Source: a virus (taxonomy: Duplodnaviria > Caudoviricetes). Taken from it: DNA of 56,136 nt. The DNA is taken from the IMG/VR virus record IMGVR_UViG_3300042987_002630, positions 1 to 56,136 of that record. One strand, given 5' to 3'. Numbering within the stretch: position 1 is the first letter of the stretch; every line of letters starts with the position of its first letter. Made by a program: the position numbers. This document shows positions 1 to 3,000 of this stretch, one piece after another.

Positions 1-3000
1 ATGCACTGCAAGTTTGCGATGTGTATGCTGCATGTACGCGAGTTAACCGGACGCCGTTTTCTTCGCATGCATGTTCTATCCGTTGCTGGGCCAAGCCCAC
101 TCGCCAGAATTGATTTCGTCTACCCCATTTGTTACCTTGCTTGATTTCACTCAAGTCTTCCATTACCAAATGGCTGATTTCTTGCCAAGGTATATCGTTT
201 TTGATAGAGTAGTTTATTTGGTTTTTGAGTTCAGTTCTTGCCCTTGCATGAGATTTGCTGCGTTGCTTGCGACGGGCAATAACCTCTAATATGTCTTTGA
301 CTCTTTTACCAGTGGTATGGGTGGTTTCTATGTTGCCGTTGGAACAAGTGACCAACTTGTTTCTGCCCATGTCCACACCCATGATGGCTTGGTTGGGTCG
401 CAAGGCTACATCTTTGACAAAATAGATACCCAAGCTACCATCGGAATTAACACGCAAACAATTGGTTTTCATGACAAAACCACGTCGCATTAGGTCTTGC
501 ATGTGACGTGTGGGTGTGAATGGGATGAAATAACTACCACGAGGAAATGATGTGATCTTGATCCAGTGGCTGGCAATCTTGCTTGTTCGATTCTCTTGTA
601 TGTCAATAAATCTTGAATCTAGCTCAATGTTAACTGAATTGATGTCAATGGACAAGCTTTTGTTGTTCCATTTGTTTAGGATTTCTTGTTGGTATTTTTG
701 TAGGTTGTTGGCTTTTTGAGCCAATTTAACTTTCTCTTGAATTGATCTGACCATTGCGCTGGCTTGTTTGGCACACACCTGACTCAAACGAGCTGGCAAT
801 TGAATTTGATCAGTGACGTCTTTGTTGGCAAATTTGGTTATTTTATCTTGATATAACTGGTGATCAACTAGTTTTTGTAGTTCTCGTTTATAGATATCAA
901 ATGGCCGCATCAACATCAAGTGTTTGATGTGATTGGCTAGTTTGGGTCTGTAAGTTGATATCCTAGTAATCTTGCTCATTTGTTGTATTATTTATGTTTT
1001 ATAATCAATCAATTGTCTTTATTAGTAATGTCACACATATGATAATATATTTGAATTTATTGCCCATTTAATGGTTTATAACTGAATCAAGTAGTCTAAA
1101 TTGATTTCCCTGAATTCAAGGAGTCAGCCAAATAGGTAATCATATGTGTCTTTTATTGGTTTTTAATAATTGCATACAAACACTTGCGAAATGAATGAAA
1201 ATATGTAATACTCCCTGTATATCTTCCACAGGTAGGCGCACGTATATGTGGTCTTGGGAAACCAAGATGTCGGAAGGGTATTAGAGGCCTATATAGGAGG
1301 ACTCTCGGTCAACACACATCAAACGCAAGCTGAGTTGCTAGGGTTATATAACCTTTTGCGAGGCCTAGCAGCCAATTTGTGGGACTAGTCCAACCTCAAG
1401 TAACTTGAGGTTGGAAACATTGCAGCAAAAATGACAGCGCGGTGGAGTACTACGCCGTATTGTAAGAGCCACGTATTGTGAGTAACCTGAGCTCTTCCAG
1501 TCTTACGGATTGCCCCTTCTGGGACTGGGAAAAAGCGCAGGAGTGAAATAATCTCTAGATGCGGTAGGCTTGGCAAGCTGTTTGAGCCCATTTTATTCTC
1601 TACTGAATCGGAATAGCAAGGTCCCTGCTGCAATCTGATCCCCATGCTTTGGCTAGCATGGGGATTATTTTTTTAAACCCCACTTGCCAACGCCTTGTTT
1701 TTTCCAAACAAATGACATGAGTGTTGATAGGTGTGTGATGAAAGATTTGATTTGACCATTTGATAATGATATACTACAGTCTGAGATTAATAACCTGCCA
1801 AATGCAATCATGAGAGCATTTTGTCAGCAACCAAGGCAATAATAATGACTCAAAGGAATATTCAAGCATGACAGACGTTGCTCAAATTTTGATTGAAGAT
1901 GAAGTAAACATTCATATCAAAAATATTGATCTGCCTACCAAAAAAGCATTGGTAAATGCTGTAAAGTTCTTTCTGCCACAAGCCCGTTATTCCCCTGCCT
2001 ATAAACTGGGTAGATGGGACGGTTGCACAAGCTTTTGTACATTGGGTGGCAAAACCTATCTCAACACATTGGACCGTCTGTTGCCAGTACTTCAAGACAG
2101 GGGATATGAATTTGAGATTGAGGACCAACGTGCTTATCATAAATTTGATTTTGACACTATTGATGAAACCTATCTGAGTGACATAACTTGGCCTCATGGA
2201 CATAGATTTGCCTATGAGAAGATTATCCTGCGTGATTATCAGATAGATGCTATCAATACCTGCCTACAGAATCTACAGGGGGTAAATGTACTGCCCACCA
2301 GTGCTGGTAAATGTCAACCATTATATGCCAAAGTTAAAACCCCACATGGCTGGGCCACCATGGGCGATCTAAAAGTGGGTGATTGGGTAGTTACTCCCAA
2401 AGGCAATGCTGCACAAGTTCAAGCTGTATTTGAACCAGGGCATAAGGATGTATATGAGTTAACGTTCAAGGATGGCAGAAAGGTCAGATCTTGTGAAGAT
2501 CATATTTGGCCCATCTTCCACCATGATTGGCAGAATAAGACCAAATTGTTGAGCCTAAAGGACATTATCACATTAAAGAATAAAACCAAACGACGTATAG
2601 GTGTGCCATTGGCAACTATGAGTCAAGACGTTCAACCTAGGACTCTTTCTCTAGATCCTTACTTGTTGGGCGTTATGTTGGGTGACGGATCTTTCAGGCA
2701 TGGCATTGGTATTACTTCACAAGATCAATTCATTCTGGACAAAGTTTCCGGTTTGTTGCACTCTGACTATGTGTTGAAACATCATGATCAATATGATTGG
2801 TCTATTGTGTTTAAAGATCATCACACTCATATGAGCTATAGATCAGTGTATGCCAAAAATCAAAAGAGAGACATATGTGGCAAGATTATTAAGGGTCAAC
2901 AATTGCCATCATATCATCTCTATAAATCTGTCCTAAATGATCTGGGACTTATGGGCACATATAGCCACACCAAGTTTATCCCAGAAATCTATTTGAATGC

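Follow-up and report, generated by a model that had tools for sequence, protein, structure and literature searches.

The GOLLD and ROOL RNAs rank with the largest known structured RNAs, and both form RNA-only cages. To our knowledge, the role of GOLLD and ROOL in phage infection has not been established. In the available part of a published account (PMC12286853), GOLLD is described as possessing a 3′ region that is conserved and a 5′ region that is less so, sometimes with a transfer RNA (tRNA) in the linker, while ROOL is presented as a phage-borne, pseudoknotted orphan structured RNA that is often found in an RNA-gene neighbourhood. In this study, we are discussing a structured RNA encoded on the plus strand of the virus record IMGVR_UViG_3300042987_002630 (Duplodnaviria; Caudoviricetes) of the IMG/VR collection, of which the whole stretch of 56,136 nucleotides (nt) was analysed and is referred to as “the window”. 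An earlier note, made from the sequence alone, had pointed to the block at positions 1215–1675 as a ~450-nt non-coding RNA, belonging either to a GOLLD/ROOL-like class or to a new one. Membership in the GOLLD or ROOL class was not borne out, whereas the second option was. The conserved core of this RNA, at 1419–1634, is, in our judgement, probably the core of a new phage RNA family, the structured members of which stand alone and putatively bind a partner. The novelty lies in the family, for which no relation to a described RNA family could be detected, and not in a demonstrated new mechanism.

Compared with GOLLD (RF02032), the new RNA is likewise a structured phage RNA with a conserved 3′ and a variable 5′ part (on the GOLLD side, according to the available part of PMC12286853), and in four of eight loci a GOLLD RNA is located on the same strand 0.36–1.5 kilobases (kb) upstream of it. 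However, there is no sequence or structure match between them, the gathering score of 150 bits not being reached, and with a core of 206–280 nt versus more than 800 nt for GOLLD, the two-part conservation is analogous only. Moreover, the new RNA lacks an embedded tRNA, with none nearby in the window, it is retained in a complete genome of 452.8 kb that is devoid of GOLLD, and it was not found in three cultured alphaproteobacterial phages with GOLLD-like sequence. With ROOL, the new RNA shares the features of a phage-borne, pseudoknotted, orphan structured RNA (for ROOL, as given in the available part of PMC12286853); yet, it is smaller, and Rfam scans returned no ROOL match in the window or the seven homologous loci.

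Fold, strand and covariation of the conserved core

The block at 1215–1675 is richer in guanine and cytosine (GC) than its surroundings, with a GC content of 0.465–0.475 over 1201–1700 vs. 0.27–0.38 just upstream and 0.34–0.40 just downstream. It is also highly structured, since its plus strand folds at −165.6 kcal/mol compared to a shuffle mean of −137.9 (z −5.05), a value that 0 of 100 shuffles equalled; both observations agree with the earlier note. The view of the block as a single unit of ~450 nt was upheld for 1419–1634, which is the only part common to all relatives, but not for 1214–1418, which is lineage-specific and owes its left edge to an insertion sequence. Across members of the family, the core measures 206–280 nt, and the longest form of the RNA seen comprises ~400 nt (locus L006, positions 2431–2832).

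Both ends of the core are paired in helix P1, a long-range helix of 9 base pairs (bp) that had already been recognised by eye and is formed by ATTGCAGCA (1419–1427) and TGCTGCAAT (1626–1634). Inside P1, the invariant strand J1/7 (CAGCGCGGU, 1435–1443; ..CAGCGCGGUAA across relatives) is followed by the variable region X with a weak helix P7 (1444–1520); across relatives, P7 encloses a variable insert of 60–130 nt, after which come CUGA and then P2. Thus, P1, P7 with its variable insert, and P2 meet in a three-way junction. Helix P2 (1521–1526 with 1620–1625), the 3′ strand of which abuts the 3′ strand of P1, closes a four-way junction with P3, P5–P5a and P6. This second junction comprises the invariant strand J2/3 (GGGAAAAAGCGCA, 1527–1539; GGGAAAAAGCGCAG across relatives), the 4-bp stem P3 (1540–1543 with 1553–1556) with its loop UGAAAUAAU (1544–1552; UGNAAUAAU across relatives), and P5 (1560–1564 with 1586–1590), which encloses GUAGG, P5a and CYGUUUGA, where P5a is a 3-bp stem (1567–1569 with 1577–1579) capped by the 7-nt loop UUGGCAA (1570–1576). 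It is completed by the P6 hairpin (1595–1599 with 1604–1608) and the strand J6/2 (1609–1619; ..AAUNGCAA), with the P6 loop and J6/2 forming a pseudoknot of 3 bp (1600–1602 with 1614–1616). About 45–50 unpaired junction and loop bases are invariant, and the helices vary freely. Downstream of P1, the strong terminator seen earlier is present as an intrinsic terminator (1636–1674, plus strand), composed of a 13-bp stem and a 6-nt loop (1636–1667) and a run of seven T residues. In L006, a 13-bp terminator of different sequence occupies the same place (2796–2826), and in L491 and L492 a U run is found directly after P1.

A covariation check in homologs, which had been proposed in the earlier note, supports this fold, as the helices keep pairing in relatives with partners that change on both sides. 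For the full core, of which seven sequences and 34 pairs were counted in a MAFFT alignment, 93.1% of the cells are paired vs. 72.5 ± 2.0% in shuffles, and changes on both sides are seen in 26 pairs vs. a shuffled mean of 15.0; none of 500 shuffles reached the observed percentage of paired cells, the number of changed pairs or the covariation score, although such controls overstate the significance, given a set of no more than eight sequences, some of which are close kin (L491/L492). Upon sliding the partners by 1–3 columns, pairing falls to 31–49% of the cells. The P2 domain, which was counted in eight sequences, is paired in 93.4% of the cells, and 16 of its 23 pairs change on both sides. P1 extends over 8–13 bp in all seven sequences, in which it occurs as six different sequences, and P7 over 6–10 bp in six of the seven, all in one register and with five of six pairs changing on both sides. 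The middle pair of the pseudoknot, between base 2 of the P6 loop and N of AAUNGCAA, is complementary in all eight sequences (AU in three, CG in three, and UA in two); of its flanking pairs, the C–G is invariant and the A–U is present in six of eight. With so few sequences, scans for covarying columns yielded 49 and 160 candidates, among which only this pair between the P6 loop and J6/2 stood out. A metatranscriptome contig from run X23, which is 93% identical to the window, represents a ninth, partial variant and carries three compatible changes, from U–U to G–C in P6, from G–C to G–U in P2, and from G–G to G–U in P5. So many helices have been replaced independently that the existence of the fold at the level of RNA is hardly in doubt, and the claim of a structured non-coding RNA on the plus strand is, hence, sustained by compensatory changes in relatives.

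The plus strand is the transcribed strand, because 18 of 207 cells are occupied by G–U pairs—which would be A–C mismatches on the other strand—and because the terminators are on the plus strand. The same two observations bear on the possibility, in part already considered in the earlier note, that the block is a DNA-level element, such as an origin or a packaging site, or else an antisense protein-coding gene. In line with such an interpretation, the minus strand of the block also folds below shuffles, albeit more weakly than the plus strand (z −3.79), and long antisense open frames are present in the window (91 codons), L040, L493 and L492, for two of which blastp recorded a match of 40% identity over 73 amino acids (aa). 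However, the G–U pairs fit an RNA of the plus strand only, interruptions of the antisense frame are seen in L006, L306, L491 and L489 (longest frames of 65, 57, 55 and 43 codons, respectively), one-base insertions and deletions occur within the conserved domain, and no reading frame open across all relatives was found, which renders both the DNA-level and the antisense alternative extremely unlikely.

No described RNA family was matched by eye in the earlier note, and this is corroborated by covariance-model scans with Rfam 15 (4227 families), which yielded no match in the region at gathering scores, nor at E ≤ 10 over 1000–1900. Group I and group II introns, RNase P, transfer-messenger RNA (tmRNA), 6S RNA and the SRP RNA were, thus, rejected as candidates, none of their models matching in 1000–1900 at E ≤ 10; as regards introns, the flanks consist of intergenic DNA that is unrelated between loci. 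Possible motif likenesses—to conserved regions of RNase P, of P2/P3/P5/P6 to a tRNA-like cloverleaf, of UGNAA in the loop of P3 to a T-loop, of UUGGCAA to an anticodon loop, and of UGGN-NCCA to a contact—are not claimed here.

Family members and the genomes carrying them

The search for relatives started with the surroundings of genes related to the neighbouring helicase (34 loci) and was followed by scans of sequence collections with motifs that are constant among the relatives; true relatives were picked by nhmmer and a covariance model among ~490 loci. Member counts are to be taken as lower bounds, considering that the pattern scans of viral, metagenome and genome contigs were not exhaustive. 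At least eight distinct sequences from at least 14 contigs are known, namely the window and 13 other viral or metagenome contigs. These comprise the L006-type, present as an exact copy in six contigs of one phage population, the L040-type, contained in two contigs of which one is a complete genome of 452,799 bp, the metagenome contig L306, the further distinct members L493, L492 and L491, and L489, the 5′ end of which is lost at the contig end. In the P2 domain, identity among the eight sequences amounts to 57–80%, with L491 and L492 (80%) as the closest pair named. Further members of the family certainly exist beyond those found.

Model R1 scores 110–138 bits on the eight members, including 120 bits on window positions 1506–1633, and its next best match reaches 17.8 bits. 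Among 100 chance-pattern loci totalling 622 kb, R1 recovers the one true member and nothing else. Scanning viral contigs for TTGGCAANCNGTTTGA and metagenome and genome contigs for gapped patterns produced one true new member (L306) among the matches listed, the remainder being almost all due to chance. Contigs of 4–5 kb that match GCGCAGNNGTGNAATAATC were dismissed as members, since the nhmmer match covers only ~40 nt around the pattern and no covariance-model score exceeds 17.8 bits, pointing to chance. L488 and L490 were likewise discarded, as they consist of coding-looking DNA without a match by nhmmer or the model. Independently of the RNA, ~20 viral contigs of 4–5.5 kb (L229–L253), a microvirus-like size, all contain an exact GCGCAGNNGTGNAATAATC, which in these contigs is probably a conserved coding motif unrelated to the RNA.

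Negative results obtained with R1 and blastn are to be read as “not found in the searched set” and not as a proof of absence. This applies to the comparison, by blastn, of three members of the family with 50,697 GenBank phage records, which gave no match, and to R1 searches of the records, taken in full, of helicase relatives at a greater distance (L022, which is complete with 400 kb, L020, L031, L034, L030, L019 and L009), of 151 alphaproteobacterial and three further bacterial genomes, and of the three cultured alphaproteobacterial phages with GOLLD-like DNA referred to above, in none of which a member was found. A full-text search of the published literature, with supplements, which could list GOLLD neighbours, lying outside its scope, returned neither a description of an RNA downstream of GOLLD nor of a new RNA class of jumbo phages.

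The record constituting the window is 13% complete according to CheckV, implying a genome of roughly 400 kb, and the other member-bearing records are either 15–28% complete at 68–116 kb or complete at 453 kb. On this basis, the carriers of the new RNA are estimated to be very large uncultivated phages of freshwater type with genomes of roughly 400–450 kb. In each of the four whole records searched, including the complete 452.8-kb genome, the RNA is present as a single copy.

The 5′ part and the TnpB insertion sequence

On the 5′ side of the RNA, the minus strand of the window contains a TnpB-like open reading frame (ORF) of an IS200/IS605-type insertion sequence (2–979; Pfam Cas12f1-like TNB domain with 27.7 bits vs. 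a cut-off of 26.3), whose C-terminus, and thus 3′ end, runs off the window, and, upstream of tnpB, the end region of this element (980–1213). In DNA run X3, contigs matching 1183–1213 either end at 1212/1213 or enter at least three unlike continuations there; because of this divergence, the position is regarded as the end of a repeated mobile element. The insertion sequence appears to be multi-copy or active in the X3 community; within the 56-kb window, no second copy was found. The promoter suggested in the earlier note (TTGCGA/TAATAC, 1184–1211) is situated inside this end region and is not among the eight sigma-70-like sites of a scan, and the suggested transcript start at 1215 coincides with the insertion junction, so that neither proposal could be retained. 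As an observation in its own right, a TnpB-only insertion sequence is seen here to reside in a jumbo-phage genome (window 1–1213, minus strand).

Guide RNAs of TnpB are encoded on the tnpB strand, where they overlap or follow the 3′ end of the gene. A structured RNA at a distance of 240 nt from tnpB bears some likeness to such a guide (omega RNA or reRNA) or to another RNA of the adjacent element. In contrast to a guide, the new RNA is encoded opposite to tnpB and past the 5′ end of the gene, the neighbour ORFs of the seven other loci include nothing related to the window's TnpB, and in X3 other sequences adjoin the end of the element at 1212/1213. We, thus, give next to no credence to an origin of the RNA from the TnpB element, which is an insertion into the RNA gene.

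Between the insertion junction and the core, positions 1214–1323 (plus strand) hold the remnant of a lineage-specific 5′ domain that is partly common to L006, as revealed by an nhmmer alignment to L003–L007. It includes a likely H-type pseudoknot of CCUGU (1214–1218) with ACAGG (1228–1232) and CUUCC (1223–1227) with GGAAG (1272–1276); the corresponding stems of L006, CCUGA/UCAGG and CCUCC/GGAGG, exhibit one compensatory change each. In L006, the 5′ domain is closed by helix P0, which is predicted in the minimum-free-energy (MFE) fold and spans 18 bp (2431–2448 with 2530–2547), and the window retains the orphaned 3′ strand of this closing helix (1306–1323). Because the insertion sequence parted the strands of P0, the 5′ domain of the window is considered to be cut, with its native 5′ end beyond the element and off the window. 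A relative in run X10 matches window positions 1208–1456 and differs in the letters before 1208, where 30 letters hold the complement of window 1306–1323 (15 + 3 bp with one bulge, read by eye).

The remnant is followed by linker hairpins (1324–1418, plus strand; MFE fold) that are specific to the window and have no counterpart in L006. The three local structures highlighted in the earlier note, i.e., a GAAA-capped 6-bp hairpin (1252–1267), the multiloop helix of GCTAGG (1337–1342) with CCTAGC (1364–1369), and a perfect 12-bp hairpin (1389–1400 with 1404–1415), are all present in the sequence, but they do not qualify as conserved parts, none of them occurring in L006, the closest relative; the region of the 12-bp hairpin, in addition, contains several insertions and deletions in the X10 relative. 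Judged from this sequence comparison, all three are additions of the window lineage. L040 and L493 possess a different 5′ domain, which nhmmer does not link in either direction with that of the window/L006 type, and in L306, L491 and L492 no such 5′ domain was seen ahead of P1 when read by eye.

GOLLD, gene neighbours and the proposed mode of action

The sole recurrent neighbour of the new RNA is a genuine GOLLD RNA, present just upstream on the same strand in four of the eight loci (182–203 bits vs. a cut-off of 150 in the Rfam scan), which constitutes an unexpected tie to the class guessed at first. Its distance upstream of P1 is 357 nt in L493, 737 nt in L492, 1307 nt in L491 and 1491 nt in L306. 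The GOLLD model is matched over its full length at 5375–5837 in L493, 467–927 in L306, 2612–3080 (minus strand) in L492 and 6069–6544 (minus strand) in L491, all on jumbo-phage contigs, and each of the four GOLLDs encloses a tRNA (Trp, Glu, Gly, and one unnamed). No terminator was found between GOLLD and the new RNA in L493, and a 350-aa ORF separates them in L306. Judging from the GOLLD layout given in the available part of PMC12286853, the Rfam match probably ends near the 3′ end of GOLLD, and the new RNA is interpreted as a separate gene. The four neighbouring GOLLDs show no conservation of sequences complementary to the P5a loop UUGGCAA, to loop UGAAAUAAU or to J2/3. In the window itself, GOLLD was detected neither at the gathering score, nor at E ≤ 0.1 over the whole window, nor at E ≤ 10 over 1000–1900.

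Adjacency in half of the loci, together with the division into conserved 3′ and variable 5′ parts known from GOLLD (PMC12286853, available part), might suggest that GOLLD or ROOL includes the new RNA as a subunit or a diverged piece. This is very unlikely, given that the GOLLD model remains silent on the new RNA at E up to 10, yet yields the above high scores on the true GOLLDs alongside, that R1 matches each locus once and never GOLLD itself, that an ORF lies between both RNAs in L306, and that a complete genome holds the new RNA and no GOLLD.

Invariant junctions combined with freely varying helices are a pattern of catalytic or ligand-binding RNAs. A ribozyme, with the junctions as its active site, would either cleave itself or process other RNAs, such as the GOLLD–tRNA transcript, in agreement with the co-orientation of the new RNA with GOLLD and its embedded tRNA and with the lack of a detectable terminator between both in L493. 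However, no ribozyme family of Rfam 15 was matched at E up to 10, a conserved cleavage-site context is not recognisable, and a complete genome that lacks GOLLD carries the RNA far from tRNA genes, so that catalysis is an improbable explanation.

The flanking genes are unlike between loci, as inferred from an all-against-all blastp comparison of the ORFs within 6 kb at the eight loci. In the window, the RNA is placed between the insertion sequence and an intein-bearing helicase that starts 190 nt downstream; the L006 neighbours are an AAA_33 kinase and convergent minus-strand genes, with nothing on the plus strand after the terminator; those of L040 are a radical-SAM gene and, downstream, a 43-aa peptide followed by PyrG; L493 has a small peptide and then PyrG downstream; and L306 is flanked by the unassigned 350-aa protein and a 25-aa peptide. 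Because of these differences among loci, the RNA is not viewed as a local regulator.

This bears directly on the alternative of a cis-acting, riboswitch-like leader, in which the junction core would bind a ligand and the platform would be the terminator (window, L006) or a nearby ribosome-binding site (L040, L306, L489). The new RNA resembles large riboswitch aptamers (cobalamin, lysine, T-box) in its multi-way junctions, in the many invariant junction bases around covarying helices, in the loop–junction pseudoknot and, in some members, in a terminator after the closing helix, which begins within about 6 nt of P1 in the window and L006; in L040, L306 and L489, an ORF starts within 25–35 nt of P1. 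Unlike these aptamers, it has no Rfam match and no conserved downstream gene, the genes following it (helicase, convergent genes, peptide plus PyrG, 25-aa peptide) being unrelated, and in L006 any plus-strand gene past the terminator is missing. Furthermore, the U run of L491 and L492 is located directly after P1, and with 206–280 nt plus optional 5′ domains the RNA is larger than most aptamers. No alternative pairing competing with P1 was convincing by eye; in both the window and L006, a terminator comes after P1. Overall, we regard a leader function as unlikely.

The interpretation we prefer is that of a stable stand-alone RNA, based on the invariant junctions, the paired termini and the terminators. 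Its shortest forms have their ends paired in P1 ahead of a U run, and the window and L006 possess a terminator. The invariant junction core would contact, or act on, a putative macromolecular or ligand partner in trans, without regulation of neighbouring genes. Because GOLLD adjoins the new RNA in half of the loci, this partner may belong to the same sphere, i.e., that of the GOLLD RNA and the phage tRNA and tmRNA genes. Certain lineages carry additional 5′ domains, which differ from one lineage to the next, and the domain of the window was severed by the TnpB insertion sequence. A functional link of the new RNA with GOLLD is conceivable, though we put it forward tentatively. Rather doubtful is the more far-reaching idea of a third “ornate” phage RNA working with GOLLD, be it as an adaptor, cargo or hetero-partner of the nanocage, or forming an RNA-only assembly of its own, where the added 5′ domain may replace the contribution of GOLLD in phages that lack it (window, L006, L040). 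In several jumbo phages, a second conserved and highly structured RNA just downstream of GOLLD offers a new handle on GOLLD function through co-expression, co-folding and joint pull-down. Being compact (about 210–280 nt) and rich in covariation, with an invariant pseudoknotted core, it is tractable for probing, cryo-electron microscopy, and ribozyme or ligand screens. Finally, it further supports the view that phages of very large size possess a repertoire of complex RNAs of their own.

Several points weigh against the preferred interpretation, besides the small and partly related set of sequences behind the shuffle controls. The ORF starts in L040, L306 and L489 follow P1 with no terminator in between and leave room for a leader function, and no convincing sigma-70 promoter was seen directly upstream in any of the loci scanned (window, L492, L491, L306, L006). 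The four runs that were compared consist of assembled contigs, which cannot show transcript ends or expression; stretches without cover in a run are not counted as evidence. The X23 metatranscriptome contig, corresponding to window positions 1537–1998, bridges the 3′ part of the RNA, the spacer and the start of the helicase gene, and does not show a discrete RNA. P7 of the window comprises only 4 bp, which 986 of 1000 shuffles attain as well, and, with this weak helix and the interruption by the insertion sequence, the window copy may be impaired. As concerns the sphere of the partner, GOLLD was not found in the window, the 35-kb record of L006 or the complete L040 genome, with all three known holders recovered as a positive control, and the L040 RNA, at 81 kb, is at least 37 kb away from any tRNA hit, the nearest being at 44 kb.

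Observations on tRNA and tmRNA genes and on the host of these phages come from several records. In the complete 452.8-kb record of L040 (G001), 43 of 45 tRNA-model hits are clustered within 378–414 kb. ARAGORN reported no tRNA gene on the 56-kb window and no tmRNA either; covariance models locate a two-piece permuted tmRNA of alpha type at 44440–44820 (plus strand; tmRNA_permuted 78.2 bits, alpha_tmRNA 69.7 bits). The GOLLD sequence of L493 resembles DNA of cultured alphaproteobacterial phages. One such phage, Bacteriophage DSS3_MAL1 (L498, 7420–8375), carries GOLLD-like DNA with an embedded tRNA-Arg, after which an annotated tmRNA occurs within ~260 nt, in a tRNA cluster; phages of Phaeobacter, Erythrobacter and Mesorhizobium also gave matches to GOLLD-like DNA. 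As regards the host, this similarity of GOLLD and the tmRNA of alpha type are no more than hints.

The small ORFs that start 25–35 nt after the RNA in L040 (9031–9164, minus strand, 43 aa) and L306 (~2716–2793, plus strand, 25 aa) encode peptides that are acidic at the N-terminus and hydrophobic at the C-terminus. Their reading as a type I toxin–antitoxin system was rejected for the lack of a counterpart in other loci.

The helicase gene downstream of the RNA in the window (1868–4438, plus strand) encodes an 856-aa protein with ResIII, DEAD and Helicase_C domains that is split by an intein, which carries a homing-endonuclease domain of the LAGLIDADG type, and the same holds for the phage of the L006-type. 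Over almost the entire 8.4 kb compared, L004 and L006 show 100% identity (99.5% in two windows of the comparison), except for 200 nt encoding the helicase N-terminus, where identity drops to 81.5%; this stretch at the start of the helicase gene (4001–4200) has the appearance of a sharply localised hypervariable or recombined patch. Elsewhere in the window, positions 8242–8322 (minus strand) hold a near-threshold match to the cis-regulatory Rfam motif “freshwater-2” (42.1 bits vs. a cut-off of 49.9; E 0.0043).

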